Shown: positions 1 to 43,124 of the stretch, in pieces
How the letters are laid out: every line of letters begins with the position of its first letter
Numbering within the stretch: position 1 is the first letter of the stretch
Position numbers and translations under genes: made by a program
The notes under the pieces: generated by a model
Seen by the model: only the letters and a program-made list of their open reading frames with translations
Told to the model about the DNA's origin: nothing
Database searches by the model: none
From: an uncultured Candidatus Binatia bacterium
GTDB lineage: Bacteria > Desulfobacterota > Binatia > UBA9968 > JAJDTQ01
Length of the DNA stretch: 64,000 nt
Assembly: GCA_965215605.1 (NCBI GenBank)
Contig: OZ244070.1
Location: 2,688,001 to 2,752,000, forward strand
Reading direction: 5' to 3'

Positions 1-797
1 TCTATCCCAGCAACGCGCTGTTCCACGGCCAGATCCGGAACAAGGGCTGGGCGGTGGCGGTGGCCCAAGCCTACAATGACTGGCTGTACGACTGTTTCGG
101 GCGCCAGTCGGACCGGCTCAAGGGGGTGGCGCTGCTGCCGGTGCAGGACATCGACGCCGCGGTCGCGGAATTGCGCCGGTGCGTGGAGGAACTGGGCATG
201 GTGGCGGGCGTGATCCCGTCGGTGATGGCGCCGCTGGTGGGCCTGGGCGGCAGCCGGTTCGACCCGATCTACGCGGAAGCCGAGCGGCTCGACTGCGCTC
301 TGGCGGTGCACGGCGGCCCGGTGGCGGGCCTCGGCCTGGACATCTTCGAGAGCCTGGCCGAGGCGCGGCCCCTGGAGCACGCCATGCCGCAGATGGTGCA
401 GATGATGAGCATGATCAACGCCGGCGTGTACGACCGCTTCCCCAACCTGCGCGTGGCCTATCTGGAGTGCGGCACGGGCTGGGTGCCGTTCATGATGGAC
501 GCGCTGGACGAGAATTGGGAGCGTCGCGGCCACGCGCTGGCGGTGAAGCAGCGCCCCAGCGACATCATCCGCGGCGGCAACATCTTCTTCACGTGCGAGG
601 TGGACGAACGGAGCCTGCCGTACGTGCTGGAACAGCTCGGCGGGGACCAGGTGCTGTGGGCCTCGGACTATCCCCACGAGCGGGCGCGCGCCGACTTCTT
701 CCACGATCTGCCGGACTTCTTCGCCCGCGAGGACGTGAGCGCCGATGTGCGCAAGAAGATCCTGTGCGACAACCCGAAGCGCTACTATGGACTGTAA
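1..797 (+). CDS. Amidohydrolase family protein (Amidohydro_2), 5'-truncated by window edge
   Basis: Frame open from window start (YPSNALF...AQAYNDWL); LAVHGG, YLECG and WASDYPH motifs. Confidence 0.85.
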   Translation, partial: YPSNALFHGQIRNKGWAVAVAQAYNDWLYDCFGRQSDRLKGVALLPVQDIDAAVAELRRCVEELGMVAGVIPSVMAPLVGLGGSRFDPIYAEAERLDCALAVHGGPVAGLGLDIFESLAEARPLEHAMPQMVQMMSMINAGVYDRFPNLRVAYLECGTGWVPFMMDALDENWERRGHALAVKQRPSDIIRGGNIFFTCEVDERSLPYVLEQLGGDQVLWASDYPHERARADFFHDLPDFFAREDVSADVRKKILCDNPKRYYGL

Positions 798-2401: not shown

Positions 2402-2566
2402 ATGGTTGAATGTCCGGTATGCGGAGCGGAATTGGAACTTGAGGATGACGCGGTGGAAGGCGAGCTGATCGCCTGCGCCGATTGCGGCACCGAGTTGGAG
2501 GTCACGAGCCTGGATCCTCCGGCGGTGGAAGAGGCGCCCTCGGAAGAGGAAGACTGGGGGGAATGA
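2402..2566 (+). CDS. lysW: Amino-group carrier protein LysW/ArgW (54 aa; absent from ORF track)
   Basis: AGGAGG RBS; MVECPVCG...CADCG zinc ribbon; acidic; ends in EDWGE; stop overlaps lysX ATG. Confidence 0.97.
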
Positions 2567-3435
2567 GCTTGAAGATCGGTCTGCTGCACTCATTGGTCCG
2601 GCCCGAGGAGAAGCTCCTCATCAAGGAGTTCCGGAAGCATCCCGACGTGGAGCTTCAGATGATCGACGACCGGAAGCTCTCGTTCAACCTGGGCAGGGAC
2701 GAGTTCGACCTGGACGTGCTGCTGGAGCGCTGCATCAACCACTCACGGGCGCTGCACGGCCTGCGGCTGTTCGAGAGCGCCGGCGTGCGCTGCGTGAACG
2801 CGTCGTCGGTGGCGACGGTGTGCGGCGACAAGATCCTCACTTCGGTGCACCTGCAGGAGCACGGCGTGCCGCAGCCCGAGGTGCGCATCGCCTTCACCGA
2901 GGAGTCCACCCTGGGGGCCATCGAGGAGATGGGTTACCCGGTGGTGCTGAAGCCCGCGGTGGGCTCCTGGGGCCGGCTGCTGGCCAAGGTCAACGATCGG
3001 GACGCCGCGGAGACCATCCTCGAGCACAAGGCGATCCTGGGGAGCTACCACCACTCCATCTTCTACGTGCAGCAGTATGTCGAGAAGACCGGGCGCGACA
3101 TCCGGAGCTTCGTCATCGGCGACGAGTGCGTGGCCGCCATCTACCGCTACAGCGACCACTGGATCACCAACACGGCCCGTGGCGGGCGCGCGGAGAACTG
3201 CCCGGTGACGGACGAGCTGCGGGATCGTTCGGTCCGCGCGGCCCGCGCGGTGGGGGGCGGCATCGTCGCCGTGGACGTCTTCGAGACCCCGGACGGACTC
3301 CTCGTCAACGAAGTGAACTACACCATGGAGTTCCGGAACAGCATCGACACCACCGGGGTGAACATTCCCGGGCTTGTGGTCGAGCACGTGCTCAAGGCCG
3401 GCCGCGAGGAACAGGAGCGCAGGGGCGCGGCCTGA
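2563..3435 (+). CDS. lysX: LysW ligase LysX (RimK-like ATP-grasp)
   Basis: [29 protein letters not shown]; ATGA overlap with lysW. Confidence 0.93.
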
Positions 3436-3489
3436 TGCGGCGGGCAGGGATCGCATGAGCGGCGCGGAGCGGAAAGCAATGGGGCGGCC

Positions 3490-4536
3490 GTGGCCGAGAG
3501 GCTGAAGGTCTCCATCGTCGGGGCGTCCGGCTACACCGGCGGCGAGCTCTTGCGCCTGCTCCTCGGGCACTCGGGGGTGGATGTCTGCGAGGTCACCTCG
3601 GAGCGCTTCGCCGGCAAGTTCGTGTTCAAGGCTCATCCCAACCTGCGCAAGCGGACGCAGCTCCGCTTCTGCAGGATGGAGGAGCTCAAGCCGTGCGACC
3701 TGCTGTTCCTGTGCCTGCCCCACGGCCAGGCCCAGGAGCGCATCGATTCGTTTCGCGAACTGGCCCCGAAGCTCATCGACCTAAGCGCGGACTTCCGGCT
3801 GAACGACGCGAACGCGTACCAACGCTGGTACGGCAAGCCGCACCAGCGCCCGGAGCTCTTGAAGGAGTTCGTCTACGGGGTTCCCGAGCTGCACCGCGAG
3901 GAGATTCGGGGGGCGAGCTTCATCACCGGCGCCGGCTGCAACGCCACCGCCACGATCCTTGGCGTCTATCCGTTCTTCAGGAAGGGGCTGGTGGACACCG
4001 AGCGCACCGTGGTGGAGGTCAAGGTGGGGTCCAGCGAGGGCGGCAACGCCGCCAGCGACGCCTCCCACCATCCCGAGCGGAGCGGCGCGGTGCGTTCGTT
4101 CATGCCCACCCTGCACCGGCACAGCGCGGAGATCTACCAGGAACTGGCGTTCGGCGAGCCGGTCCGGGTGTACTTCTCCGCCACCTCCATCGAAATGGTG
4201 CGCGGCGTCCTGGCCACCTGCCACCTTTTCCTGAAAGAACCGCTGGAAGAGAAGGACGTGTGGAAGATCTACCGCGAGGCCTACGGCAAGGAGCCCTTCA
4301 TCCGCATCGTCAAGGAGGCCGACGGCATCTACCGCTATCCGGAGCCCAAGCTGCTGAGCGGCACCAACTACTGCGACATCGGCTTCCAGAAGGAGAAGGG
4401 CTCGGACCGCTTGGTAGTGCTGAGCGCCCTCGACAACCTCATGAAAGGCGCTGCCGGCCAGGCGGTGCAGGCCTTCAACCTCATGAACGGCTTCGAGGAG
4501 ACCGAGGGCCTCGAGTTTCCGGGGCTCCACCCGTAG
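3490..4536 (+). CDS. lysY: [LysW]-aminoadipyl/glutamyl-phosphate reductase
   Basis: GASGYTGGE, DLSADFR, GCNAT, SHHPERS, DNLMKGAAGQAVQ, C-terminal GLHP. Confidence 0.92.
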   Translation: MAERLKVSIVGASGYTGGELLRLLLGHSGVDVCEVTSERFAGKFVFKAHPNLRKRTQLRFCRMEELKPCDLLFLCLPHGQAQERIDSFRELAPKLIDLSADFRLNDANAYQRWYGKPHQRPELLKEFVYGVPELHREEIRGASFITGAGCNATATILGVYPFFRKGLVDTERTVVEVKVGSSEGGNAASDASHHPERSGAVRSFMPTLHRHSAEIYQELAFGEPVRVYFSATSIEMVRGVLATCHLFLKEPLEEKDVWKIYREAYGKEPFIRIVKEADGIYRYPEPKLLSGTNYCDIGFQKEKGSDRLVVLSALDNLMKGAAGQAVQAFNLMNGFEETEGLEFPGLHP

Positions 4537-4548
4537 CCCCCGAGTGCC

Positions 4549-5187
4549 ATGTGCCGCCTCCTGTGCGTCAAGAATCGGGAACCGTTCGACATCGGCGAGC
4601 GGCTGTCGCATCTCGCCGATATCGCCCGGAACAGCCCGGAGTACCAGGGCCACGGCTGGGGCTGCGCCTACCTGGTGGACGGTGGGTGGCGGGTATATCG
4701 CAACATCAAGCCCGTCTGGGAGGACGACCTGGACCAGTTCGGCGCGACGACGCTGCTGGTGGGCCATGCCCGCAGCGCGTTCCGGGACGAGAACATCGTG
4801 GTGGAGAACAACATGCCGTTCTCCGACGACCGCTACGTGTTCGCGTTCAACGGCGAGCTGCGGGGCGTGCGCATCGCCGCGGAGGGCCGCATCGGGGCGG
4901 AGAAGGTGTTCAACTACATCAAGCGGTTCGACAAGGGGGACATGGCCGCGGCCATGCGAAAGGGGATGGACGTCATCGTCCGGAGGACGCGTTACGTCCG
5001 GGCCATGAACATGATCATCGCCGACAGGGAGAATGTCTACGTGGGGTCGTTCCACAACGAGGAGCCGGAGTACTTCAGGCTGCGCGCCCGTGAAGGCGAG
5101 GGCGGCTTCACGGTCAGCTCCGAGACCGTGGCCGAGGATCCGGCGTGGCGCACGATCCCCAACGACACGGTGGAGCACCTCCGATGA
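4549..5187 (+). CDS. Class II glutamine amidotransferase-like Ntn hydrolase (EgtC/YafJ-like)
   Basis: N-terminal MCR nucleophile, GWG, HARSA, NxxPF, FNG motifs; stop overlaps lysZ start. Confidence 0.8.
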   Translation: MCRLLCVKNREPFDIGERLSHLADIARNSPEYQGHGWGCAYLVDGGWRVYRNIKPVWEDDLDQFGATTLLVGHARSAFRDENIVVENNMPFSDDRYVFAFNGELRGVRIAAEGRIGAEKVFNYIKRFDKGDMAAAMRKGMDVIVRRTRYVRAMNMIIADRENVYVGSFHNEEPEYFRLRAREGEGGFTVSSETVAEDPAWRTIPNDTVEHLR

Positions 5188-5971
5188 TCCTGGTGAAGAT
5201 CGGCGGCGGCAGCGGCATCAACCTCCCCGGCATCGCCGGGGACCTGGCCGAGGTGTCGGCCCCGTTCATCGTGGTGCACGGCGCCAATGCGGTGCGGGAC
5301 GCCATCGCGGCGAAGCTCGGCAATCCCACGCAGGTGGTGACGTCGGTGTCGGGATACACCAGCGTGCTCTCCGACAAGGCGGCGCTGGACGCCATCCTGA
5401 TGGGCTACGCGGGGGTGCAGAACAAGCGCATCGTCGAGCTGCTGCAGCAGAACGGAGTCAACGCCGTGGGCCTTTCCGGCATCGACGGCCGCGCCATCCA
5501 GGGTCAGCGCAACAAGGGCATCCGGGTGCGGAAGAACGGCAAGACCCTGATTGTGAGGGACTTCTCGGGCAAGCCCCGGAGCGCCAACAAGGAATTGTTC
5601 CAGCTCCTGCTCGACGGCGGCTACGCGCCGGTGCTTTCCATCCCCATCATCGACGAGCGTCACACCGCCATCAACTCGGAGAACGACGACATCATCAACG
5701 TGCTCCAGGCCGCCTTCCACGCCGAGGTGGTGCTGCAGCTCATCGAGGCCCCCGGCTTTCTCGCCGACAAGGACGACGACAGCACGGTGGTGCCCGAGAT
5801 CCGCGCCGGCGAGCTGGAGCAGCGGGAGGCCCAGGTGGAGGGGCGCATGAAGCGCAAGATGCTGGCGCTTCGGAAGCTGTTCGAGGAAGGCGCGGAAAAG
5901 GTCATCATGAGCGACGGCCGTGTCGAGCATCCGGTCCGTGACGCCCTGGCGGGGAAAGGAACGGTGATTCA

Positions 5972-5975
<4 letters not shown>
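5184..5975 (+). CDS. lysZ: [LysW]-aminoadipate/glutamate kinase
   Basis: MILVKIGGG, VVHGA, GLSGIDG, GRMKRKM amino-acid kinase motifs. Confidence 0.92.
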
Positions 5976-7126
<1,151 letters not shown>

Positions 7127-7243: not shown

Positions 7244-8212
7244 TCAACGCGTCACTTCACGGACCAACCCCTGCCAAGTCAGGATCTCCCGGTCCGGGTT
7301 CACCAGCGGGGCGACCTCGGCGCAGTGCCGTGCCAGGCTCTCATAGAACGCCGGGTCGTTCTCGGCCCGCAGCAGGAGCCGCTTGAGCCCGGCGGTGTCG
7401 CCCAGCTCGTAGTAGCCGGGATAGTCGTCGCCGAGGGTGCCCATCAGTCCGGAGATCCTGGACGCGGCCACGGGCACGCCGGAGGCCAGCGCTTCGCACA
7501 GCACGTTGGAGCTGCCTTCCATCTGCGAGGTGATGGACACGATGTGGCTGCGGGCCATGAACCGGCGGGTCTTCCAGTGCGGCCACTCGCCCAGCCACCG
7601 GTAGCGTGGGTTGCGCTCGGCCTCCCGCGCGGCGCGGCGCAGGAAGCTGTCGCCGAAGGCCGCGCCGATGTGCACCACCTGAATCCGGGATGTGCGTGGG
7701 AGGGAGCGCACCGCCATGGCCGTGCGGAACGGGTCCTTCTCGGGGCGCATGTGGCCCACCGCGGCGACCGTGAACTGCCTGCGGCGGTCGCCGGGGCGGC
7801 CGGGGCGGGCCGGCGCGGACTGGTAGATGACCCGGGTCTTCTCGTGCAGCGCCGGATCGAGTTCATCCAGACCCTTGCGCTGCAGCACCACCAGGCGGGC
7901 GGCCAGCCGCAGGGACTCCCGCGAGTCCTCGTCCTCATGGATGTCGCGGTAGAGGTCGGTTCCGGTCAGCACCACCACGATCGGCTTGTCGGGGTGCCGC
8001 TCATGGAACTGCCGGATGGACGGATGACTGCGGCGCGCGTGGAGGGCGATAAGCAGGTCGCAGCGCTCGCGTTCATAGCGGTCCAGGGCCGTTACCCGAT
8101 GTCCCGAGGCGCGCAGGATTCGAGCCCACCGGTTGCCTGAGATGCGGTTGCCCGTGCGGCGGGTGGGTCCGGCGGGGGTCACCAGGGCGATTCTGGCCGT
8201 TGTGGTGTCCAT
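7244..8212 (-). CDS. senB: Selenosugar synthase SenB-like GT-B glycosyltransferase
   Basis: VTPA...GNR..RWA, LIALHARRS, LTGTDLY, GHMRPEKDP, S-x-MEG; directly downstream of senA-like gene. Confidence 0.85.
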   Translation of the reverse strand: MDTTTARIALVTPAGPTRRTGNRISGNRWARILRASGHRVTALDRYERERCDLLIALHARRSHPSIRQFHERHPDKPIVVVLTGTDLYRDIHEDEDSRESLRLAARLVVLQRKGLDELDPALHEKTRVIYQSAPARPGRPGDRRRQFTVAAVGHMRPEKDPFRTAMAVRSLPRTSRIQVVHIGAAFGDSFLRRAAREAERNPRYRWLGEWPHWKTRRFMARSHIVSITSQMEGSSNVLCEALASGVPVAASRISGLMGTLGDDYPGYYELGDTAGLKRLLLRAENDPAFYESLARHCAEVAPLVNPDREILTWQGLVREVTR

Positions 8213-8354: not shown

Positions 8355-9659
8355 CTACTTCGTTGCGCACGTCCGGAAACCCGCCAGCACGTCCCGCCGA
8401 TCCGGCGTGTAGAAATTCCGCCAGGTGTTGCGGATCAGGTGGGAGCGGGTGGCCCAGCAGCCGCCGCGCAGCACTTTGCGGTCGCCGAACCAGGGCTCCG
8501 AGTATTCCTTGTAAGGGTCCCGGACGAAGCCGGGGTAGGGGTGGAAGGCGTCGGCCGTCCACTCCCAGACGTTGCCGATCATCTGCCGGCAGCCGGCGGC
8601 GCTGTCGCCCGCCGAGAGCGCATCCACCGGCAACCGGCCGCCGCCGGCCCAGTCGAGGTTGCCGTGGGACGGGTCGGGCGGCGCTTCGCCCCAGGGGTAG
8701 CCGCGCTTGGCGGCAGCCGGATCTGTGCCGCGGGCGGGGTCCACCGCCGCGGCCATCTCCCACTCCGCCTCCGTGGCCAGCCGGCGGCCGGCCCAGCGGC
8801 AATACGCCTCGGCCTCGTACCAGTTGACGTGGATCACCGGCAACTCCGCCTGAAGCGGCCCCCACCGGTCGAAGATCCGCTCCAGCCAACGTCCCGGCGC
8901 TTCCCGCTGCCAGTAAACGGGGTGCGTGCCGCCCTCGGCCTGCCGCCAGCTCCAGCCCTCGTCGCCCCACCAACGCGGGTCCTCGTAGCCGTTGTCGTCC
9001 ACGAACGCGGCGAACTCCTGGTTGGTCACCGGGGCGCGGGCGATGCGGAAGGGGGCCACGGTCACCGGGTGGCCCCACTTCTCGTTGTCGAAGACGAAGG
9101 GAAGATCGGGCGTGCTGCCGAGAATGAACTCGCCGCCAGGCATCTCCACGTCGCCGGGGCAGGGGCTGCCCGCCGGCGTCGCGCGTCCGGCGGCGAACGG
9201 CGGCGGGGGATAGCCCAGGGTCTGGCGCGTGTAGGTCATGGCCTCCGCGTGCATGTCCTCGTGGAAGATGACCAGCTTGTGGAAGTAGGTCTCCTCCGGG
9301 CTCAGTCGCTTGGCGGGTAGCTCTTCGGTGATCTGCCGGAGGACGCGCTCCTTGTAGGCGAGGGTTTTCGTCAGCCCCGGCAGCGCCAGCACCCAGCGGG
9401 TGTCATGGTGCACGGCCGCGGAGTCGTAGAGCTCGTCGCCGTTGGCGATGATGGGGTCGCGGCCGCGCAGATGCCGCAGCGCCCAGCGCTCATGGAACCA
9501 GGACACGTGACCGAGTTCCCAGAGCGGAGGATTCACGATGTTCAGCATGGGCACCGTGAGCTGTTCGCCGGAGAGGTCCTCCACCAGCCCCAGGGTCCGC
9601 GAGCGCACCTCTTCCAGGGTGTCCAGCATCTCGCCGGTGGTTACGGTCTTTTCTTCCAT
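8355..9659 (-). CDS. senA: Selenoneine synthase SenA-like (EgtB family: DinB + FGE-sulfatase domains)
   Basis: NPPLWELGH, HEDMHAE iron motif, FVFDNEK, GNVWEW, RNFY; start reassigned to MEEKT. Confidence 0.83.
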   Translation of the reverse strand: MEEKTVTTGEMLDTLEEVRSRTLGLVEDLSGEQLTVPMLNIVNPPLWELGHVSWFHERWALRHLRGRDPIIANGDELYDSAAVHHDTRWVLALPGLTKTLAYKERVLRQITEELPAKRLSPEETYFHKLVIFHEDMHAEAMTYTRQTLGYPPPPFAAGRATPAGSPCPGDVEMPGGEFILGSTPDLPFVFDNEKWGHPVTVAPFRIARAPVTNQEFAAFVDDNGYEDPRWWGDEGWSWRQAEGGTHPVYWQREAPGRWLERIFDRWGPLQAELPVIHVNWYEAEAYCRWAGRRLATEAEWEMAAAVDPARGTDPAAAKRGYPWGEAPPDPSHGNLDWAGGGRLPVDALSAGDSAAGCRQMIGNVWEWTADAFHPYPGFVRDPYKEYSEPWFGDRKVLRGGCWATRSHLIRNTWRNFYTPDRRDVLAGFRTCATK

Positions 9660-9663
9660 GATG

Positions 9664-10812
9664 CTACCGGAGCGCGCGCTCCAATCTCTCCCGCCACGGC
9701 TCGAATTCCCGGCACCACCCTTCGTTACGACGGGCCAGCAGGTAGCCGTGGGCGGCTTCCAGCGCGGCGCGTTCCGGCTCGGGCAATGTCGCCGCGGCGT
9801 CGGCGTCCGCGTCCCTTTCACAGAATCGCCTGAGGGCGCGCCAGTGGTCCAGGTTGACTTCACCGAACCGCTCCATCACGGCCGTCTCCCAGCTCGCCTC
9901 CGGGTCGTAATCCGCCGGGGCCCGCGCGTAGTCGAAGCAGGTGGCCATGGGAACGAAGCTCAGTTCTTCCTGCAAGAGCGGGTTGGCCAGGTGCGCGTGC
10001 ACCCGTTCCGGCAGCCGCGGGTCCCGGCCGGTGAGGGGTCCGATGTGCATTTCGTCGGCCATGGTGAGATCGTTGACCGGGTAGTTGTCCCAGAACAGCA
10101 GCCGGTGCCCCATCCTGTCGCCCATCTCCGCCATGTGGTCCAGGGTGACGCTCGCCGGCACCACCTTGGGCCCGGTCCAGAAGCAGGGCACCTGCGCCGG
10201 CAGGTAGCGCCCGACGGTCTCGGGGAAGCCGGTCTCGAACTCGCCGAAGACCCGGGCCAGCAAGGGGTCGGGGGTGTAGTACGAGGGGCAGAACCACCAC
10301 TCCGCGTCCCAGTCCGCGGGCTGTCGTTCCAGCACCGCCTCCAGCCAGAGGGACTCCGCCTTGGCCAGGCTGCCGTCGAACCTCCTCACGTCGCCGGCGT
10401 CCGTCAGGTGAGAAGGGATGTCGTCGAACAGCACCGCGAAGGTGTGCACGCCCCGGTCGTAGAGCCGCGCCGCCTTGTCGAGCAGAACCCCCACCGGTCC
10501 GGCGGCCGTGAAGCACAGGTCCTTGCCAGGGTGAAAGCCGTAGACGAAGTCGATGCCGTGGGCCCGGGCCGTGTCGATGAGCCCGCACAGCTCCCGCCAC
10601 TGCGGCTCGGGGTAGGGGAGTTGCCAGCGCTCGCGGTGGTAGGGGTCGTCCTTGGGCGCGTAGAGGTAGGTGTTCATGCCGCGCGCGGCGCCGAACGCGA
10701 ACATCGCCGCGCGGTGCGCCATGCTCCACGGGGGACCGAAGAAGCCTTCAACGATCCCCCGCCGCTCGAATGTCGCTATGGATTCAGTGTCCTGTCCGAC
10801 CGGGGATTTCAC
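9664..10812 (-). CDS. GH84 beta-N-acetylglucosaminidase (O-GlcNAcase-like), no signal peptide
   Basis: VEGFFGPPW, YLYAPKDDPYHR, catalytic LFDDI, FWTG, WDNYPVND; GTGA overlap with upstream gene. Confidence 0.87.
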   Translation of the reverse strand: MKSPVGQDTESIATFERRGIVEGFFGPPWSMAHRAAMFAFGAARGMNTYLYAPKDDPYHRERWQLPYPEPQWRELCGLIDTARAHGIDFVYGFHPGKDLCFTAAGPVGVLLDKAARLYDRGVHTFAVLFDDIPSHLTDAGDVRRFDGSLAKAESLWLEAVLERQPADWDAEWWFCPSYYTPDPLLARVFGEFETGFPETVGRYLPAQVPCFWTGPKVVPASVTLDHMAEMGDRMGHRLLFWDNYPVNDLTMADEMHIGPLTGRDPRLPERVHAHLANPLLQEELSFVPMATCFDYARAPADYDPEASWETAVMERFGEVNLDHWRALRRFCERDADADAAATLPEPERAALEAAHGYLLARRNEGWCREFEPWRERLERALR

Positions 10813-11933
10813 TGGCCCGTGTTGTAGAGCCGCGCGCAGTTGTCCCAGAGGTACTTCCGCTTGGAATCGTCGGAGAACGGCATCTCCAGGAAAGTATCCA
10901 GCGAGTGCGGATACTTGACGTCCAGGTGCGGATAGTCGGTGGAGAACACCACGTTGTCCTCCAGGCCGAAGTCCGGGATGTACTTGGCGGTGATCTCGTC
11001 GCATTCGACGGCGCCAAAGCACTGGCGCTGGAAATACTCCAGCGGCTCGAGCTTGAGGTCCGGGTACTCGGCCTTGCCCACCGATTCCATGTAGTCCCCC
11101 ATGCGATACAGGAGCCACGGGAGCCAGGAGCAGTTGCCTTCCAGGAAGGCCACGCGCAGCTTGGGGAAGCGCTCCATGACGCCGCCATAGATCATGTCCG
11201 CGCACGCGAACATGTTGGCCAGCGGAAAGCTCAGGGTGTTGAACATGGAGAACGACGGAATGAACTGAGAGATGGCGGGCTGGGGCTGGTAGACGCGCCC
11301 GGCTTCGTGGAAGCCCACCGGCACGTTCAGGTCCTGGCACACCTCCCACAGCGGATCGTAGTAGGGGTCGCTCCAGCACAGTCCGTTGGTCTGGTTGGGG
11401 CGCATGAAGACGCCCCGGAAGCCCTTTTCGTTCACCGTGCGCCTGGTCTCGGCCACCGCCGCCTCGACGTTCTGGGGCGGCACCATGGCGACGCACACCA
11501 TGCGCTCGGGCGCGGCTTGCGAGAAGTCGTAGAGCCAGTCGTTATAGGCCCGGGAAATGGCCGCGGCCAGCTCCGGGTCGAGGCCGTCGATGCCGAGCAC
11601 GAAGAGGCCGCGGGTGGGGAACAGGAACGCCACGTCGAGCCCTTCCTTGTCCATGGCCATGACCTGGCTGACGCCGTCGAAGTCGCGCGCGGCCACGTCG
11701 GCGTATTTCTCCTTCAGGGTGCTCAGGCGGTAGTCCCTGAGGCCCGGGTTTTCCGGCCGCCTCGGGATCGGCAGGATCTTCCCTTCGACCTCCACGCCGA
11801 GGTCCCGGAAGTCGCGTTGCAGGCCCTTGGGCGCGCGGTCCTTGAACTCCGGATCGATGTAGCGGTCCCACAGGTCATGGGGCTCGAACACGTGCATATC
11901 GGAGTCCATTGCCTTGAAGCCTTGTTTCGCCAT
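10809..11933 (-). CDS. Amidohydrolase family protein (Amidohydro_2)
   Basis: DSDMHVFEP, VGFHE, FLEG, FSTDYPH. Confidence 0.88.
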   Translation of the reverse strand: MAKQGFKAMDSDMHVFEPHDLWDRYIDPEFKDRAPKGLQRDFRDLGVEVEGKILPIPRRPENPGLRDYRLSTLKEKYADVAARDFDGVSQVMAMDKEGLDVAFLFPTRGLFVLGIDGLDPELAAAISRAYNDWLYDFSQAAPERMVCVAMVPPQNVEAAVAETRRTVNEKGFRGVFMRPNQTNGLCWSDPYYDPLWEVCQDLNVPVGFHEAGRVYQPQPAISQFIPSFSMFNTLSFPLANMFACADMIYGGVMERFPKLRVAFLEGNCSWLPWLLYRMGDYMESVGKAEYPDLKLEPLEYFQRQCFGAVECDEITAKYIPDFGLEDNVVFSTDYPHLDVKYPHSLDTFLEMPFSDDSKRKYLWDNCARLYNTGQ

Positions 11934-11999: not shown

Positions 12000-12028
12000 A
12001 TCGTAGGCTGTTGCCGGTGGGCTGTCAA
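12000..12028 (-). promoter_or_regulatory. Sigma70-type promoter for amidohydrolase-GH84-senA-senB
   Basis: TTGACA-N17-TACGAT on minus strand about 66 nt upstream of the ATG at 11933. Confidence 0.65.
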
Positions 12029-12090: not shown

Positions 12091-12888
12091 CTAGCGCCAC
12101 CGAAGCATGGTCTTCTCCGCCTTGCCGATGAGCCAGCTCACGGTCAGGCCCATGATGGACAGCAGCGCGGCGCCGGCTATGAGCTCGTCGGTGGCCATGA
12201 GGTTGCCGGCCAGCAGGATGTAGGCGCCGACGCCGAACTCGGCGCCGATCATCTCGGCGGCCACCAGCAGGATGATGGCGATGGAGGTGGAGATGCGGAA
12301 GCCCGACAGGATCGCCGGCATGGCGCCGGGCAGGATGATCTTGCGCACGATGGAGAACCACGTGAGGTCGAACGACTGGCCCATGCGGATCAGGGTCCGG
12401 TCCACGTTGTCGACGCCGCCGTACACCGAGATGACGGTGGGAAAGAACGTGCCGAAGAAGATGGTCGCCACCTTGGATTCCTCGCCGATGCCGAACCAGA
12501 TGATGAAAAGGGGCAGCAGCGCGATCTTCGGAATCGGGAAGATGGCGGCCACGAACGGGACGATGCCCGCCCGGGCAAGGGAAAACAGTCCGGCGGCGAA
12601 GCCCACCAGGAGGCCGGTGACGGTACCCAGCGTCCAGCCCAGAAGCAGGCGCTGGAGGGACGCGGCCAGATGCAGCCAGAGTTGGCCGGTCTTCAACAGG
12701 TAGAAGAGAGCCGCGATGGCTTGGCTGGGCGCGGGCGCCATGAGATCGCTGATCCAACCGGCCCGGGAGGCGATTTCCCAAACGCCGATGAGCGCCGCGA
12801 AGACCAGCGGGCCCACCACGCCCACCGGCCTGGGCTGGAAACCGCCGCCCCGATAGGGCACCGGCGAGCCGCCGGCAGCCTCAGACAT
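12091..12888 (-). CDS. ABC transporter permease (NitT/TauT/SsuC family)
   Basis: PIPKIALLPLFIIWFGIGE, VAAEMIGA; hydrophobic. Confidence 0.9.
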   Translation of the reverse strand: MSEAAGGSPVPYRGGGFQPRPVGVVGPLVFAALIGVWEIASRAGWISDLMAPAPSQAIAALFYLLKTGQLWLHLAASLQRLLLGWTLGTVTGLLVGFAAGLFSLARAGIVPFVAAIFPIPKIALLPLFIIWFGIGEESKVATIFFGTFFPTVISVYGGVDNVDRTLIRMGQSFDLTWFSIVRKIILPGAMPAILSGFRISTSIAIILLVAAEMIGAEFGVGAYILLAGNLMATDELIAGAALLSIMGLTVSWLIGKAEKTMLRWR

Positions 12889-13648
12889 GGACGATCTCCT
12901 GGTCCGCGGCCAGCGCCTCTTCCCGCATGAGCTCCCAGAGATAGCGCTGGCGGTCCCACAACATGCCGGACTGCCCCTTGCGCTCTTCCAGCGGCACGTC
13001 CAGCTCCACGACCTCGCGGATGCGCCCGGGCCGCCGCGACAGCACCACGATCTTGTGGCCGAGCCGGACCGCCTCCTCGAGGTTGTGCGTCACGTAGCAC
13101 GCGGTGAAACGCTCGCGCAGCCAGAGGTCCAGGAGGTCGTCGAGGAGCAATTCCCGGGTCTGGCCGTCCAGTGAGGACAGGGGCTCGTCCATCAGGAGAC
13201 AGGCCGGCCGCACCGCCAGCGCCCGGGCGATGGCCACCCGCTGCTTCATGCCTCCGGAGAGCTGCTTGGGAAAGGCGTCGCGGAAATCCGAGAGCTTGGT
13301 CCGGGCGAGGACGTCGTCGATGATGGCATCGGCCTGGCCCCGCGAGAGGCCGTGCCTTTCCAGCACCAGGGAGATGTTGCCGGCGGCCGAGCGCCACGGC
13401 AGCAGGGCGAAGTCCTGGAATATGTAGGTCAGCGGATTGAGGCTGTCGGGCGGCGGCGGGCTCATCTGCCGGACGGCGCCCCGGGTCGGGCGCTCCAGCC
13501 CGCCCAGGAACCGCAGCAGCGTCGACTTGCCGCACCCGGACGGTCCGATGATGCAGACGATCTGCCCCGAGCCGATACGCAGGTCGATGTCTGTCAGGAC
13601 CTCCGTCCGGCCATACCAGTGGCTGATGTTGTCGACGTGGATGTCCAT
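12881..13648 (-). CDS. ABC transporter ATP-binding protein (NitT/TauT family)
   Basis: GPSGCGKST, LSGGMKQR, LLMDEP, VTHN. Confidence 0.93.
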   Translation of the reverse strand: MDIHVDNISHWYGRTEVLTDIDLRIGSGQIVCIIGPSGCGKSTLLRFLGGLERPTRGAVRQMSPPPPDSLNPLTYIFQDFALLPWRSAAGNISLVLERHGLSRGQADAIIDDVLARTKLSDFRDAFPKQLSGGMKQRVAIARALAVRPACLLMDEPLSSLDGQTRELLLDDLLDLWLRERFTACYVTHNLEEAVRLGHKIVVLSRRPGRIREVVELDVPLEERKGQSGMLWDRQRYLWELMREEALAADQEIVHV

Positions 13649-13661
13649 CCACTCACCGCGC

Positions 13662-13703
13662 CCCGCCGGGGAGGAAAGCCGCGCCGCTTCCCTCCCCGAC
13701 GGG
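13662..13703. other. Intercistronic stem-loop between binding-protein and ATPase genes
   Basis: CCCGCCGGGGAGGAAAGC / GCTTCCCTCCCCGACGGG near-perfect inverted repeat. Confidence 0.55.
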
Positions 13704-13711
13704 TCCCACCG

Positions 13712-14746
13712 CTACTTCTTCACGAAGCTGGTGTCGATGTAGTCCTCGGTGGTCAGCGACTTCGGGGCGAAGCCGTGGGTCTGGAACCACGCCAGTTGCC
13801 GCTTCAGATCGGCAATGTCGAGGGCGGCGTCCTCGGTCATGTAGACAGCGCCCGCCTTGATGGAGGGCGCCGCCTTTGCCCGCGGCCGGGACGTGTAGAC
13901 ATACTTGTGAATGACGTCCACCAGGGCCTCGGTGGCGGCGGGGTCCTTCTTCTGGTCGAGCATGACCGCCCGGTAGTCGGCGATGCCCTTGCGGTAGGCG
14001 CCAAGGAAGCGCTCGACCTTGCCGCGTTGGTTCTTGACGTTGTCGGTGGAGGTGAAGATCGTCGTCACCTGGTAGCTGCCCAGGTCACGGATCCAGCCGA
14101 TGATCTTGGCGGCGCCGGCCTTGCTGAGCGGAATCGCCACGTGGGGCACCATGGCCATGGCGTCCACCTGGCCCGATTTGACCGCTCCGATCATCGCCGG
14201 GACTTTCTGAAGCGGCTTGACCTTGACGTCGGCGAGGCCGAACCCGTGCTTGGCGCCGATCATGCCGATCATGTAGTGGAAGGACGAGCCCTGCTGCGTC
14301 ATGGCCCAACTGCGGCCCTTGACGGCTTCGGGTGAGGTGAGCCCTTCCTTGTAGGCCTTGTTGGAGGCCATGACGGCCATGCCGTTGTGCTTGGGGTCCT
14401 CGGTGTAGAGGCCGCCGATGACCTTGAGCGCGCCCTTGCCCGCGAGGTTGTAGAAACCCCCGGTGAGGGCGGTGACGCCGAAGTCGATGTCACCCGAAGC
14501 GATGGCCACGGCGATGGGCTGGGCCGCCTGGAAGAACTTGAGCTCGACGTCGAGACCTTCCTTCTTGAAGTAGCCCCTTTCCTTGGCGATGAACGTGGGC
14601 GAATGCGAGGTGAAGCGCAACGCGCCGATGGTGATCTTTTCCGCCGCGGCCTCGTTCGCCCACAGGGCGGCCAGGCCGAGCAACGCGATCCCGGCGAGGC
14701 TGCCCGCGGACCATCGCCACCCCGTTTTGTCGGTTCTCTTGAGCAT
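13712..14746 (-). CDS. ABC substrate-binding protein (NMT1/SsuA/TauA family)
   Basis: AGGAGG RBS, signal peptide, IAKERGYFKKEGLDVE motif. Confidence 0.88.
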   Translation of the reverse strand: MLKRTDKTGWRWSAGSLAGIALLGLAALWANEAAAEKITIGALRFTSHSPTFIAKERGYFKKEGLDVELKFFQAAQPIAVAIASGDIDFGVTALTGGFYNLAGKGALKVIGGLYTEDPKHNGMAVMASNKAYKEGLTSPEAVKGRSWAMTQQGSSFHYMIGMIGAKHGFGLADVKVKPLQKVPAMIGAVKSGQVDAMAMVPHVAIPLSKAGAAKIIGWIRDLGSYQVTTIFTSTDNVKNQRGKVERFLGAYRKGIADYRAVMLDQKKDPAATEALVDVIHKYVYTSRPRAKAAPSIKAGAVYMTEDAALDIADLKRQLAWFQTHGFAPKSLTTEDYIDTSFVKK

Positions 14747-14827
14747 CTGAATCCTCCTTTGTTGGAACATGAAAGGCTGTTGTTGCCGCCTTCCCCTGGA
14801 ACAGGGACGCCAGAAAGCATCGTCATA

Positions 14828-27185: not shown

Positions 27186-28505
27186 TCAGGCCTTCCAGTT
27201 GTCCTCGCCGCGATAGCTCTTCGCCAGTATCTGCAACGGGTTCAGCGGATGTTTGCCGGTGGCCTGCTCGATCTGGATGGCGGCCAAGGGACAGTCGGAG
27301 CAGGCGACCTCGGCCTCCGCGCCCTCGATGCCCCTGAACGCCTGCCGCCCCCAGCGCATGGAGGCCTCGAAGTTCTCCCGCTTCATGGCCCAGGTGCCGT
27401 CGTGTCCCGAGCAGGCCTGTATCAGGGTGACTTCGGTGTCGGGCAGGAGCGACAGCAGGGCGCTGGTCTTGTTGCCCAGCCGCTGGGCGCGCAGGTGGCA
27501 CGGCTGGTGGTAGGCGATCCTGCCCGGGCCGGTCTTGAAGTCCCGGTTGAGCTTGCCTTCGGCGTGAAGCGAAGCCAGGAACGCCGTGGGATCGGTGGTG
27601 TGCTCGGCCACGTCACGGGCCGCCTGGGTTCCCAGCATCCGCGGGTACTCGTCGCGCAGAGTCAGCGAACAGGTGGGGTTGGTGGCGACGATGGTCCGGC
27701 CCTCCTCGACGAACGGAAGCAGCAACCCGACGTTGCGTTGCGCCTGGGCCTTGGCCTTGTCCATGTCGCCGTTGTGCCACGACGGCATGCCGCAGCACTC
27801 CCGGTAGGCGAGGGCGACATCCACCCGGTTCCGGGCCATGACTTCCAGCGTGTCCATGCCGATGCCCGGCTCGTTGTAGTTGACGAAACAGGTGGCGAAG
27901 TAGGCAACCTTGGCCACCGGCTCGGCCTCGGGCCGGTGGCGCTCGGAGCGGAACCGCGAAGCGAAGGTCTTCCACGCGAAGGGCGGGAGCTTCTTGTCCT
28001 TGTGGATGCCCAGGGCCCCCTGCATGAACAGCCTGTGCACCCGGTTCTCGTTGCCCCAGTTGGCCATGGGCGCGGTGGCGGAGCCGAGCCTCCCCACCAG
28101 GTCGGGGCTCCCCAGCATCCGGTCCGTGAAGGAGACCCCGTGCTTCTTCACGTGCTGGGCCTTGGCGCGCGCCATGAGGCGGGGGAAGTCGATGGCCCAG
28201 TCGTGGTCCTCCGGCGTGTAGGGGCAGTTGATGTTGCAGAGCTTGCACTGGAAGCACAGGTCCACCACCTCGTCCACGTCGTCGGGCTTGAGCTTCGAGG
28301 AATCCACCTCCGCGAACTCCTCCTCGGTGCAGTACGAGTCGATGGCGTCGAAGAGCTTGGGAAAGCTGCCGCAGAACTTCACGCACAGACGGCACTCGGC
28401 GCACAGATGGAAGACTCGTTCGACCTCGGAGCGCAGGTCCTGCTCGTCCCAGAACCGGGAGTCCGTGAGATCGTACGCGGGCGTTGCATCGGGGACCTTC
28501 TTCAT
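27186..28505 (-). CDS. Fe-S oxidoreductase (GlpC/HdrD-like: ferredoxin plus CCG domains)
   Basis: CAECRLCVKFC, CFQCKLCNINCP, CCGMP, CSGHDGTW, SDCP; ATGA overlap with egtD stop. Confidence 0.87.
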   Translation of the reverse strand: MKKVPDATPAYDLTDSRFWDEQDLRSEVERVFHLCAECRLCVKFCGSFPKLFDAIDSYCTEEEFAEVDSSKLKPDDVDEVVDLCFQCKLCNINCPYTPEDHDWAIDFPRLMARAKAQHVKKHGVSFTDRMLGSPDLVGRLGSATAPMANWGNENRVHRLFMQGALGIHKDKKLPPFAWKTFASRFRSERHRPEAEPVAKVAYFATCFVNYNEPGIGMDTLEVMARNRVDVALAYRECCGMPSWHNGDMDKAKAQAQRNVGLLLPFVEEGRTIVATNPTCSLTLRDEYPRMLGTQAARDVAEHTTDPTAFLASLHAEGKLNRDFKTGPGRIAYHQPCHLRAQRLGNKTSALLSLLPDTEVTLIQACSGHDGTWAMKRENFEASMRWGRQAFRGIEGAEAEVACSDCPLAAIQIEQATGKHPLNPLQILAKSYRGEDNWKA

Positions 28506-29566
28506 TTCGGCTCCATCCCGCCCGACTGCGCGCTGCGGCGGAAAAGCAGCAAGGAGAACCACTGTTTCGGGTCGGTCCAGTGGCCCAGGCTCTCGAGCCC
28601 GAAGGAGCCGAGCAGCACCTGCAGGTCGTCGGGGTCGAACTTGCGGCTGGTCTCCACCAGGATTCCTTCACCCTTCTCCCAGACGAAGGACGCCGAGTGC
28701 CGGGGGAACTCCACCCGGTGGGTCTCGGCGGCGATCCCGTACATCTCCACCCGCTCCCGCGCCCGGCTGTAGCTGCTGCGATAGGCGATTTTCTCCGGTT
28801 GGAAGCCAGCCCCGGTGGCGCGGGTGACGTTGGCGAAGGCGTTCAGAATGAAGGCGGCGGTGACGCCGCGGGAGTCGTTGTAGGCGCGCTCGATGATCTC
28901 CGGCTCCTTGATGCGGTCCACCCCGAGCAGCAGGTAGTCCCGGGGCCCCATGTGGTCGCACAGGTGGGTGAAGAAATGCAGCATGTCGGTGGGAGTGAAA
29001 TTCCCGATGGTGCTGCCCAGGAACACCACGAGCTTGGGAATGTCCGGGGTGATGCTGGTGATGGCGTCCTCGAAGCGGGCCTTGAGCCCGGTGAACGCGA
29101 GCTCGGGAAACATCTCCTCGGCCATGCTCCTGGACGCCATGAGGGCGGTGGCGCTGACGTCCACCGCGGCGAAGGTGCCCCGGCCCCGGGCCCGGCTCAG
29201 CGCCTTGAGCAGATGGACGGTCTTCTTCGAGAAGCCGGCGCCGAGCTCCACGATGCAGTCTACCGGCGCCAGGCTCATCAGGGTGCCGGCCTCCCGCTCG
29301 AGGATGGCGGCCTCGGTGCGGGTGGTGTAGTACTCGGGCAGTTCGCAGATTTCCTCGAAGAGAAGCGAGCCCCTCTCGTCGTACAGGTGACAGGGTTCGA
29401 GCCACCGGGGACGGTCGAACAGCGTCCGGACCATGCCGGCGGCGACCCTTTCCGGGGGGCGTCGCCGGGGAGTCAGAATCGACGGCGCGGTGACGTTCCA
29501 GGTGGCGCGGTCGTCGGTCGAAAGGATCTCGGCGGGTTCACGGGTCTCTGCGGCTCGGGGAGTCAT
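28502..29566 (-). CDS. egtD: L-histidine N-alpha-trimethyltransferase EgtD family
   Basis: YDERGSLLFEEICELPEYYTTRTE, ELGAG, FLGSTIGNF, AYND, ETSRKF; start approximate. Confidence 0.87.
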   Translation of the reverse strand: MTPRAAETREPAEILSTDDRATWNVTAPSILTPRRRPPERVAAGMVRTLFDRPRWLEPCHLYDERGSLLFEEICELPEYYTTRTEAAILEREAGTLMSLAPVDCIVELGAGFSKKTVHLLKALSRARGRGTFAAVDVSATALMASRSMAEEMFPELAFTGLKARFEDAITSITPDIPKLVVFLGSTIGNFTPTDMLHFFTHLCDHMGPRDYLLLGVDRIKEPEIIERAYNDSRGVTAAFILNAFANVTRATGAGFQPEKIAYRSSYSRARERVEMYGIAAETHRVEFPRHSASFVWEKGEGILVETSRKFDPDDLQVLLGSFGLESLGHWTDPKQWFSLLLFRRSAQSGGMEPK

Positions 29567-29734
29567 CCGGTCAATATAGAGAACGGCAGGGATTTGTCCA
29601 CCGGTGTGCCTCCCGGGGCGGAGAACACCGCCTTTGTTGAAATCCAAAACGGCCATTACAGCGCCACGCTTGGCGATCCGTTGCGGGATGTCCCGCTCGC
29701 CGCGGCTACCAGCGTGCCGGAATGCGAGGGATCC

Positions 29735-33562: not shown

Positions 33563-33856
33563 GTGGCCGACCTGCACGAGCGGGCGCACTCGGGAGCGTA
33601 CCGGGCGACGCCGTCGCGGCGCGTGAACATCCCCAAGCCCGACGGCGGGACACGACCGCTCGGCGTCGCGGCCATCGAGGACAAGATAGTCCAGAAGGCC
33701 GTGACGGAGACAATCCTGACACCGATATACGAGGCGGAGTTCCTGGGGTTCGGTTACAGGTTCCGGCCCGGACGTGGGACGCACGACGCGCTCACCGCGC
33801 TCACGACCGGAATAAAACGTCGCGAAATCACCTGGGTGGTGGACATTGACGTACGC
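33563..33856 (+). pseudogene. Group II intron reverse transcriptase fragment
   Basis: YRATPSRRVNIPKPDGGTRPLG..EDKIVQ, FRPGRGTHDA, WVVDID; no YADD or downstream domains. Confidence 0.85.
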
Positions 33857-33892
33857 GCTGCAGGACTCGGCATCGCGAGAAGGAATCAAATC

Positions 33893-36232: not shown

Positions 36233-36400
36233 CTTCCGGGACGTTTTGTGATGGCCGAAGGCATGAGGCCCTGGACGCGCCGATCACCCCGGTTCCGCCG
36301 GCGTCTCGCGAGCAAACTTCCGCCCGTCCGCGTCCACGTTCGCGGCATGCCGTCATTCTCGACAGCGTCCGTATTGCCGGTCACGAGTGCAGGAGCACCT

Positions 36401-38419: not shown

Positions 38420-38499
38420 GTTACACGCCATTCCTCGTGATTTGATTCTTTCTCGTGATGCCGATGCCTGCGGCTTCCGGTCCCCTTTTTTCCATCCCT

Positions 38500-41400: not shown

Positions 41401-41955
41401 TAACGTCACCCCGAGCATCCGCGAACAGAGCATCGGGTCCATGGAATATCCCAAGGATCTGCGCACGATCGAAGCGCGGCCGTCGGCGCCGATAATTCGG
41501 TCGACATTTATGGCGCATTCCGAGGCGTTTTTCGAGAAGGTGATCCGTTCGTCTTCAACGACCTTGACCCGCGCGTGGGAAATGAAATCGACATTGGCCT
41601 CGTTCTCTATGACCTCGCGGAGGCTTGAAACGAGCAGCGCGTGGTCGCATACCAGACCCCGTGAACCGTCTGGATAAGGAAGCAGGATCGGGTCGGAGTC
41701 GTCGTCGGGCAGCACCACGAAACCGACGCCCGACTTGCTGCCGGAAAGCGTGTCGACATCAATCCCGATGTCACGCAACAACTTCACTGCCGGCGGATGC
41801 AACCATTCGCCTGCAAGGCGTTTAGACGCTTTCGGATTCGCTTCGAGCAGGGCCACCTTAACGCCCTTGCGCGCAAGGACAATTGCGCACACGCTTCCCA
41901 CCGGTCCCGCGCCGACAATGGCGGCATCATACTTCAGCACCGAGTCAGCCCTCAT
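38500..41955 (-). CDS. Squalene epoxidase-oxidosqualene cyclase fusion
   Basis: GAGPVG, GEWLHP, GADG, GDAAGHYHPMTAVGMT followed in frame by WYCHTR, VSDCTAE and several QxxDGxW repeats. Confidence 0.9.
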   Translation of the reverse strand: MRADSVLKYDAAIVGAGPVGSVCAIVLARKGVKVALLEANPKASKRLAGEWLHPPAVKLLRDIGIDVDTLSGSKSGVGFVVLPDDDSDPILLPYPDGSRGLVCDHALLVSSLREVIENEANVDFISHARVKVVEDERITFSKNASECAINVDRIIGADGRASIVRRSLGYSMDPMLCSRMLGVTLHDADLPFEGYGHVVLGGPGPIFIYGLANGSVRVNVDVPLDCWNSKDWISFLSESYGKLLPGYLGPAFVEALHVRRFHAAPNQLRPRVTYGSPRRVLIGDAAGHYHPMTAVGMTLGFGDALALSKSEDFQQFTAERFQATRVPEFLAMGLYEVLGDYRTESAMLRKAVYQGWRANSGYRDRTMRILACEDLSMSMTVFSFCETVARAMSREITFSIRRLSWRRMLVNFRALAARLWWLLLGIRQLREATREGREESANAREHLRRAFPYSIPSKTESERPARAGEVDSPDAGPALDSAAQCLVQLQREDGDWEGEMVWCPMLTAQYVLLHHIIGQPLDPGKRRRVLRSFERTRLQDGSWGLHEHSSPHLFVTALVYVAARLLGVLPDDPLIAPARRFIQAEGILGIPSWGKLWLALLNLYDWNGVNAVLPELWSLPRKIPLHPSNWYCHTRLLYMAMASIYARRFQVPVTPVIAALREELYPQGFARADFLAARNRLRDADLFARPSVWLRLGYGFARLVERFHSKHLRTRCMDTILGQIRWELQTTGHTSISPVSGILNILALWLHDPDDTDCRRALSKMGSWIWEDEDDGLRVTGARSASWDTGFVLQALATMPETDRVRDALQRGADFLLGEQIKTSFERFREAYRADPKGGWCFAGGWHGWPVSDCTAEAVLGLVAAHGDDTDPSVLSEAIGFMLRSQNPDGGFGSYEARRSAIDLERLNPAEMFGESMTERSFVECTASCIAALAVCRDRFPEIGDRSVVADSIARGVLWLRRHQMADGSWRGVWGVQYIYGTLFGIRGLVSDRAGPSDPALRASCRWLLERQQQDGGWGEHHSGCLSGRYVPHQESQVIQTAWALIALLEAGTTDWAAISRGAGFLLDTQEADGTWPKQDMAGVFFRTALLDYVLYRQYFPLHALALYEQRRRNQRMNMILPARSQRVMAGRVAAVDMTPDGRTGTAKKFS

Positions 41956-43037: not shown

Positions 43038-43124
43038 TGGTGCGAGGAGGGGGACTTGAACCCCCACGCCATTGCTGGCACTAGCCCCTCAAGCTAGCGC
43101 GTCTGCCTATTCCGCCATCCTCGC
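43038..43124 (-). tRNA. tRNA-Leu(GAG)
   Basis: GCGAGGA/TCCTCGC acceptor stem, CTAGC-TTGAGGG-GCTAG anticodon arm, long variable arm, GGTTCAAGTCC, CCA end; downstream of secG. Confidence 0.97.

Follow-up and report, generated by a model that had tools for sequence, protein, structure and literature searches.

In a 64,000-nucleotide (nt) stretch of an uncultured Candidatus Binatia genome (contig OZ244070.1; hereafter the window, from source genome G000, which comprises 4.06 Mb and is 97% complete), a gene for a predicted GH84 β-N-acetylglucosaminidase lies directly upstream of senA and senB, which encode selenoneine synthase and selenosugar synthase. As judged from sequence, this locus represents a genuine, conserved form of the sen cluster that includes an additional predicted glycosidase. 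Among the genomes listed, every intact member of the sen-linked GH84 clade came from a senA-carrying genome. We propose, with a confidence somewhat short of even, that the GH84 protein is a dedicated sen accessory Se-glycosidase, which would cleave the bond between N-acetylglucosamine (GlcNAc) and selenium in the SenA product and return GlcNAc. Gene linkage, co-occurrence across genomes, active-site conservation, and pathway chemistry bear on this proposal and on its alternatives, as described below.

A GH84 gene adjoins senA and senB

The cluster is encoded on the minus strand in the order ABC transporter, a 157-nt gap, an Amidohydro_2 gene, GH84, senA, 142 nt, and senB. The GH84 gene (9664–10812, minus strand; 382 amino acids) was assigned to its family, and to the sen-associated clade of predicted β-N-acetylglucosaminidases, by a 270.2-bit match to PF07555 and by the comparisons below. 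Its TAG stop codon at 9666–9664 is followed by the four nucleotides CATC and then by the senA ATG at 9659, and its GTG start codon (10812–10810) overlaps the TGA stop codon of the Amidohydro_2 gene (10811–10809) in a GTGA arrangement that indicates translational coupling. No alternative ATG, GTG, or TTG start occurs before the conserved N-terminal F-x-RRGIVEGFFGPPWS block. The initial annotation had placed a GH84 gene at 9664–10812, ending 4 nt 5′ of the senA ATG, and reading of the sequence bore out both the coordinates and the spacer; the strand, which that annotation did not give, is minus.

The 434-residue SenA protein (8355–9659, minus strand), which consists of DinB_2 and FGE-sulfatase domains, scored 514.2 bits against the SenA equivalog model NF041186 (cut-off 420) and just 346.5 bits against the EgtB model, under the cut-off of 360. 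Its Tyr386, Asn415, and Phe416 residues align with the Y-N-F positions of the OvsA-YNF variant 8UX5 and were invariant in 19 of 19 SenA sequences; the alignment scores were 335 bits to 8UX5 and 325 bits to wild-type OvsA. Passages of PMC11030361 describe these three positions as switching OvsA to hercynine use. The 322-residue SenB protein (7244–8212, minus strand), a GT-B enzyme, scored 387 bits against TIGR04348 (cut-off 300) and 200 bits against the solved SenB 8JJN, and in the latter alignment it keeps Asn20, Glu231, and the aligned lysine of GHxRxxK, with Thr23 replaced by serine; in passages of PMC10891094 the lysine is catalytic and the Asn, Thr, and Glu residues bind the sugar. The sugar motif EGGAHV reads EGSSNV in this SenB, so that His235 becomes asparagine; in the relevant part of PMC10891094, EGGAHV is called highly conserved in SenB and its histidine is said to touch the C4 hydroxyl of the sugar. 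A genome search found one SenA and one SenB in G000.

Metatranscriptome contigs of relatives, mostly 90–95% alike, span parts of senB, senA, and the Amidohydro_2 gene, and two of them (X2 record 14 and X7 record 29) bridge the Amidohydro_2/GH84 junction. They leave most of the GH84 body uncovered and cannot prove a transcript, the libraries may contain DNA, and none of the contigs was used as evidence.

Linkage recurs across one GH84 clade

A protein search with GH84 returned more than 2000 relatives. Nearly all of the best 120 were 345–416 residues long (one had 324) and contained PF07555 only, and those among the 120 with names came from metagenome-assembled genomes of Binatia or 'Deltaproteobacteria'. 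Fused forms of 670–2000 residues were sought and none was found at E ≤ 1e-60, which is weak evidence. A one-genome-per-species scan then gave at least 80 GH84 loci, and the counts that follow are among the loci listed: 37 in which GH84 is 52–90% identical to the window protein (the clade) and 43 in which it is 30–41% identical (other GH84s). In 25 of the 37 clade loci SenA is encoded downstream of GH84 in the same orientation, and SenB follows in 21 of them; the four linked loci without SenB terminate at or inside SenA. By contrast, neither SenA nor SenB was found near GH84 in any of the 43 other loci. Without three unpublished genomes (G009, G022, and G034, with loci L025, L043, and L047), linkage stands at 23 of 34.

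Of the 25 linked loci, 18 have GH84 and SenA separated by no more than 305 nt and seven by 1.0–3.1 kb; in these seven an α/β-hydrolase gene, often together with a VOC/glyoxalase-family gene, is inserted. Among the 12 clade loci not seen linked, six have less than 1.7 kb of downstream sequence, and L045 contains the genes inserted in L042 up to its contig end; the other five are considered below. Because linkage recurs where GH84 identity has fallen to ~52% and SenA identity to ~49%, it is not peculiar to this genome. The association of GH84 with senA and senB, which the initial annotation had drawn from a single locus and proposed to follow across taxa, thus extends beyond the closest relatives, although the linked loci apparently come from one order. 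In a quick tree, which included ten other GH84s from the surveyed loci but not the solved enzymes, the sen-linked clade was monophyletic (SH-aLRT 100; stem length 1.27), and copies from Betaproteobacteria were nested inside it.

Intact GH84 of this clade co-occurs with SenA

SenA scored above the cut-off in 32 of the 37 clade genomes, was cut by contig ends in G017, G020, and G023, and was represented in G015 only by a 134-residue piece at the end of L032. Each of the 36 listed genomes with an intact clade GH84 thus has SenA or a fragment of it cut by a contig end. G037 alone of the 37 lacks both SenB and a SenA over the cut-off, and its GH84 gene (L052:10001-11150) is broken over two frames just ahead of the catalytic motif, either by pseudogene decay or by an error of long-read assembly. 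SenB was above the cut-off in 33 of the 37 genomes and SelD in 36, the latter mostly with one in-frame TGA.

Within a sample of 201 genomes from the class of G000 (unpublished members G915 and G1011 fall outside its order), the sen-linked clade was confined to the order of G000. The 27 genomes of this order, which span three families, all contain SenA, and 26 contain GH84; the remaining genome is represented by a 2965-bp contig that ends at SenA. In 23 of the 27, SenA and GH84 share a strand and are no more than 4 kb apart. Another 37 genomes of the class, from other families, also contain a GH84, and in 28 regions from 24 of them GH84 was 29–38% identical to the window protein and had no sen neighbours. 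Copies labelled Betaproteobacteria or Burkholderiales are unlinked to sen genes, yet five of the six are in SenA-positive genomes; their neighbours (L030, L038, L039, L040, L044, and L052) include TauD, TctC, peptidase M1, AFOR, MFS, and GlnRS genes and share no theme. As kin are not independent, we give no statistical test of co-occurrence.

This distribution bears on a different role, in which the enzyme would recycle GlcNAc in the cytoplasm generally, from muropeptides or chito-oligomers in the manner of NagZ, and its proximity to senA and senB would reflect inherited gene order. Several observations fit. GH3, the family of NagZ, had no match in G000, in 11 of 11 other genomes of the genus, or in two of two genomes of family f100; an AmpG-like MFS protein is encoded in 15 of the 37 loci; and the linked loci seem to be from one order. 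In family f2, however, a NagZ-sized GH3 occurs in 12 of 13 genomes and the sen-linked GH84 also in 12 of 13, with at least 11 genomes holding both. In family f7, 20 of 25 genomes contain neither GH3 nor GH84. Nor was intact GH84 of the clade ever found without SenA (36 of 36 listed genomes), and the betaproteobacterial acquisitions are in SenA-positive genomes in five of six cases, compared with 83 of 301 genomes in a sample of Burkholderiales (unpublished members G363, G542, and G631). The conserved neighbours include no nagA-, nagB-, or nagK-type gene. Replacement of NagZ as a general explanation is rejected for family f2, because GH3 and sen-linked GH84 are largely in the same genomes, and is weakened overall; we consider a general recycling role improbable.

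The predicted GlcNAc site is complete

PF07555 (NAGidase), the sole Pfam domain detected in GH84, covers residues 18–321 and scores far above its cut-off of 25 bits; G000 carries one GH84 in total. Enzymes of this family cleave β-GlcNAc glycosides by substrate assistance. The Asp130-Asp131 pair (VLFDDIP), which the initial annotation had reported as an intact DD dyad, was invariant in 18 of 18 aligned relatives and, in alignments with solved GH84s, falls on the WDDI/FFDN catalytic site (the WDDI of NagJ and the D120N region of 5DIY). Both aspartates, together with Lys54, Asp55, Tyr179, Trp241, Asn243, Asp248, and Asn277, showed at least 90% conservation among 36 sequences of the clade as well as among 43 outgroup sequences. 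Structural roles for these –1-site residues follow in part passages of PMC2973230. Residues specific to the clade include Phe25, Phe93-His94, Trp172-Trp173, Ser177, and Leu249.

The nearest solved relative is 5DIY, the O-GlcNAc hydrolase of Thermobaculum terrenum (214 bits by HMMER alignment). An AlphaFold2 model of GH84 (pLDDT 76.5, pTM 0.78) contains a (β/α)8 barrel followed by a helical bundle and matches 5DIY over both parts; its top Foldseek matches were all GH84 structures, with a TMq of 0.81–0.82 to 5DIY. The description of the protein as single-domain therefore holds for its Pfam content, whereas structurally the barrel precedes a helical bundle of ~60 residues, as in solved bacterial O-GlcNAcases. 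Because the N-terminus (MKSPVGQDTESIATFERRG) has no hydrophobic signal, and no signal peptide was found, the cytoplasmic location given in the initial annotation is a reasonable reading. It is likewise reasonable to regard GH84 as a well-formed cytoplasmic β-N-acetylglucosaminidase with a complete predicted GlcNAc (–1) site. A complex prediction for SenA and GH84 scored 0.00 and supports neither view of their relationship.

Another reading is a protein O-GlcNAcase, which would remove O-GlcNAc from proteins as proposed for the T. terrenum relative; in its favour, bacterial and human O-GlcNAcases give the best matches in both sequence and fold. Three observations make this role very improbable. 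First, the GT41 O-GlcNAc transferase (OGT) model PF13844 had no match in G000, in a search whose controls matched in two of 14 genomes. Second, the EGFYG motif keeps its tyrosine in 98% of other sampled GH84s but has phenylalanine at that position in 100% of the sen-linked clade. Third, the gene context is metabolic.

Cleavage of the GlcNAc–selenium bond as a possible function

The chemistry of the pathway provides candidate substrates. Passages of PMC10891094 describe the SenB product as a β-configured selenosugar, and passages of a 2022 preprint (bioRxiv 10.1101/2022.04.13.486033) report that the SenA selenoxide eliminates spontaneously and that excess dithiothreitol diverts it to the hercynyl-SeGlcNAc selenoether. 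The chemical premises of the initial annotation, a β-selenosugar and spontaneous selenoxide elimination, agree with these accounts. For the sister reaction of OvsA, the corresponding parts of PMC11030361 report that the sugar is released as 2-acetamidoglucal and that SeGlcNAc accumulates in an ovsA mutant. From the β-configuration of the selenosugar, the selenoxide/selenoether chemistry, and the GH84 mechanism, we infer that the best-fitting substrate is the GlcNAc–Se bond of the SenA product.

A sequence of steps can be envisaged in which SenB would form 1-seleno-β-GlcNAc and SenA would join it oxidatively to hercynine, giving hercynyl-SeGlcNAc selenoxide. The reducing cytoplasm would turn part of this selenoxide into the stable selenoether, or the selenoxide might last long enough to be intercepted. 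GH84 would then hydrolyse the C1–Se bond with substrate assistance, the 2-acetamido group attacking C1 while Asp130 polarises it and Asp131 serves as acid/base, and selenoneine (or its selenenate) and intact GlcNAc would be released. Such a step could recover material from a dead-end shunt, keep the sugar from being lost as 2-acetamidoglucal, and supply GlcNAc for re-use. Thioglycosides are reportedly cleaved without general acid catalysis, according to the title of one paper. The wider proposal, that some bacteria possess an enzymatic deglycosylation branch in which GH84, as the first natural Se-glycosidase, converts hercynyl-Se-GlcNAc (selenoxide or selenoether) into selenoneine and GlcNAc, we hold slightly more tentatively than the assignment of the enzyme itself.

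A number of observations weigh against cleavage of the SenA product. According to passages of 10.1101/2022.04.13.486033, the pathway yields selenoneine in vitro without a glycosidase, and published accounts call the selenoxide short-lived. Active-site loops 243–279 were of low confidence in the GH84 model, which therefore says nothing about the aglycone pocket. Most sen clusters have no GH84. At least eight SenA-positive genomes from other orders of the class lack the sen-linked clade, and in the Burkholderiales sample SenA was above the cut-off in 83 of 301 genomes and any GH84 was found in two. As the linked loci seem to belong to one order, common descent explains part of the recurrence. 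Five clade loci with at least 4 kb of downstream sequence (L030, L038, L040, L047, and L052) are truly unlinked, and in the two genomes of family f100 (G875 and G941) GH84 lies directly before SenB, with SenA elsewhere. Given these two genomes and the five unlinked loci, a role directed at the selenosugar fits as well as one directed at the SenA product.

Such a selenosugar-directed enzyme would hydrolyse 1-seleno-β-GlcNAc, its diselenide, or imported selenosugars to GlcNAc and selenide, and we rate this as unlikely; the suggestion that it would act as an overflow valve, in selenium recycling, or in salvage that feeds SelD is unlikely to the same degree. Beyond the placement of GH84 directly upstream of SenB in G875 and G941, 15 of 37 loci have an AmpG/Acatn-like MFS gene that converges on SenB, the build-up of SeGlcNAc in the absence of a downstream synthase is recorded in passages of PMC11030361, and selenide is in demand, as 36 of the 37 genomes encode SelD, mostly with an in-frame TGA. 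With SenB co-expressed, however, this activity would create a futile cycle that spends ATP and UTP. In addition, 18 of 25 linked loci have GH84 upstream of senA at a distance of at most 305 nt, the clade of the window has no MFS gene adjoining SenB, and simple removal of the middle gene can explain the GH84–SenB pairs.

The by-product of the SenA reaction offers another target. Retaining glycosidases generally hydrate glycals, and GH84 might hydrate the eliminated enamide sugar, 2-acetamidoglucal, to GlcNAc, thereby recycling the sugar and clearing a hexosaminidase inhibitor. This sugar is the one released by the analogous OvsA in passages of PMC11030361, N-acetyl glycals are listed as hexosaminidase inhibitors in part of PMC6017319 (citing Santana 2016), and the genomic link to sen genes applies equally. 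On the other hand, the glycal is reported as an inhibitor of GH84, and a literature search found no report of its turnover; Asp130 and Asp131 do not appear to be placed for protonation at C2; and every SenA organism makes the glycal, whereas few have the enzyme. We therefore regard hydration as rather doubtful, more so than selenosugar hydrolysis. An explanation that we have not listed is quite improbable, though less so than protein O-GlcNAcase activity.

Two further proposals of the initial annotation are not supported. A GH84 acting in place of SenC is rejected, as SelD is encoded elsewhere in 36 of 37 clade genomes, including G000, and seven of eight GH84-less sen clusters from other orders of the class also have no adjacent SelD (it adjoins the eighth). 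The sulfur version, in which ergothioneine would be released, has no support beyond chemistry, and all but one of the 37 genomes encode SelD. We know of no source of 1-thio-GlcNAc.

Literature searches of main texts, supplements aside, did not find selenoneine together with GH84, and a search for selenoneine with N-acetylglucosaminidase returned nothing relevant, only unrelated mycology. A 2026 survey (PMC13674229, supplements aside) covered the genes located within 5 kb of all such synthases, and its Table 1 names no glycosidase.

Neighbouring genes and other features of the window

The Amidohydro_2 protein encoded upstream of GH84 (10809–11933, minus strand; 374 residues; PF04909, 118 bits) has PtmU3 (6OMP, 123 bits) as its nearest solved relative, followed by decarboxylases. 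PtmU3 is a non-haem di-iron hydroxylase of Amidohydro_2 fold and not a hydrolase. Among the 37 clade loci, this gene adjoins GH84, at 90–96% identity, in L016–L020 only; one more match, at 49%, lies 8.5 kb upstream in L032, for a total of 6/37. A second Amidohydro_2-like frame at 54–797 (plus strand) of the window was judged by eye only. The 157-nt gap 5′ of the Amidohydro_2 gene contains a promoter-like site, TTGACA-17-TACGAT (12000–12028, minus strand; 10 of 12 matches), which is weak, one site being observed compared with 0.7 expected in shuffles. The ABC transporter, of NMT1/SsuA type by Pfam and NCBIfam matches (12091–14770, minus strand), comprises a binding protein (13712–14770), an ATPase (12881–13648), and a permease (12091–12888). 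It stays beside the cluster only in L016 and L017, and its membership in the same unit is uncertain.

Recurrent neighbours across the 37 loci include a LysE-type exporter (18/37), the AmpG/Acatn-like MFS protein convergent to SenB (15/37), a fatty-acid-desaturase-like membrane protein (14/37), a secreted small FGE-domain protein (13/37), EgtD in the flanks (12/37), an α/β-hydrolase (10/37), a permease-OpuAC fusion with an ATPase (7/37), and a VOC protein (6/37); SelD was found in the flanks of none (0/37). The permease-OpuAC fusion with its ATPase has the architecture of the ergothioneine importer EgtUV. The secreted protein, of ~270 residues and with an FGE-sulfatase domain only, is encoded divergently from GH84 (for example, L027:9090-9911; also L122 and L123). 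Together with the LysE exporter and the desaturase-like protein, it stays with GH84 even where SenA has moved away.

An EgtD-like histidine trimethylase gene, whose product would supply hercynine, lies 19 kb from the cluster (28502–29596, minus strand; start codon uncertain). It is the sole copy in G000, and its product matches PF10017 with 290 bits, yet its TIGR03438 score of 274.4 is below the 290.9 cut-off. The window contains no SelD/SenC gene. The sole SelD of G000 (C1:1984272-1985198, locus L002), 700 kb from the cluster, contains an in-frame TGA codon where the catalytic Cys/Sec residue belongs (…KAAG*AAKLG…), from which we conclude that G000 decodes selenocysteine; SelD has an in-frame TGA in most of the 37 clade genomes. 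Many genomes from other families of the class encode an EgtB/SenA-like match below the SenA cut-off (330–380 bits) in frames of 780–1150 residues (for example, G932:C13:147622-148893 and G929:C545:13011-14300), which suggests fused synthases.

On the strand opposite to senB, and adjoining it, is a LysW-type amino-group-carrier cluster (2482–7126, plus strand) with LysX (RimK and LysX pre-ATP-grasp domains), a semialdehyde dehydrogenase, an amino-acid kinase, and a class-III aminotransferase; a 212-residue frame inside it, starting MC, had no Pfam match. Passages of PMC13674229 put ATP-grasp genes near such synthases at 0.3%. The ATP-grasp gene beside senB looks like ordinary lysine/arginine biosynthesis. 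Finally, the GC content of the window is 0.63–0.70 outside one low-GC island (33563–42054; 0.53–0.59), which has sterol-type genes: a 1184-residue frame that fuses squalene epoxidase (PF08491 and FAD_binding_3) to squalene/oxidosqualene cyclase domains, then a frame with GPP34 and a C-terminal cytochrome P450 part, and then an MMPL/sterol-sensing-domain transporter. A tRNA-Leu gene lies at 43038–43124. The island may represent a sterol synthesis cluster gained by horizontal transfer.

Discussion

The sen pathway, described in 2022, is to our knowledge the first route known for building selenium into small molecules. Published accounts treat its last step as a spontaneous one that gives up the sugar as 2-acetamidoglucal. 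A glycosidase locked to senA and senB would mean that the sugar–selenium bond or its by-products are handled enzymatically. If the GlcNAc–Se bond of the SenA product is cleaved by GH84, then a final step held to be purely spontaneous would be enzyme-assisted in vivo and the sugar carrier would be recycled. This could bear on selenoneine yields in vivo, including those of engineered production, and on the fate of selenosugars. GH84 is also a candidate enzyme for the cleavage or synthesis of Se-glycosides, and its proposed reaction could provide a testable natural substrate for unexplained cytoplasmic bacterial 'O-GlcNAcases' in organisms without OGT.

Comparison with the canonical senC-senB-senA cluster of Variovorax paradoxus (Kayrouz et al., 2022) reveals likenesses in the SenA and SenB equivalogs, in the hercynine-type Y-N-F residues of SenA, and in the presence of SelD and a candidate EgtD gene in G000. 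Unlike the canonical cluster, the one described here has no selD or senC, the only SelD being 700 kb away with an in-frame TGA, and GH84 and Amidohydro_2 genes precede senA; the pathway as set out in passages of 10.1101/2022.04.13.486033 has no glycosidase. By analogy, a GlcNAc–Se hydrolase would play the same logical role as the C-S lyase EgtE, in that each would free a chalcogen-imidazole from the carrier delivered by a sulfoxide/selenoxide synthase, but by glycoside hydrolysis rather than by a pyridoxal-phosphate-dependent β-lyase of entirely different fold. Selenoneine is stated to need no EgtE-like step in part of the same preprint (10.1101/2022.04.13.486033).

Among known glycosidases, NagZ is likewise a cytoplasmic β-N-acetylglucosaminidase but, as a GH3 enzyme, differs from GH84 in family and mechanism. 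The sen-linked GH84 clade forms a long branch apart from the ten other GH84s in our tree, from which the solved TtOGA (5DIY) and OgOGA (2XSA) were left out. Like these two enzymes, sen-linked GH84 proteins have a GH84 barrel and a C-terminal helical bundle, no carbohydrate-binding or secretion modules, and the Asp-Asp dyad and sugar-binding residues. Unlike them, the sen-linked GH84 has residues specific to its clade, is encoded in a genome without OGT, and belongs to a predicted selenometabolite operon.

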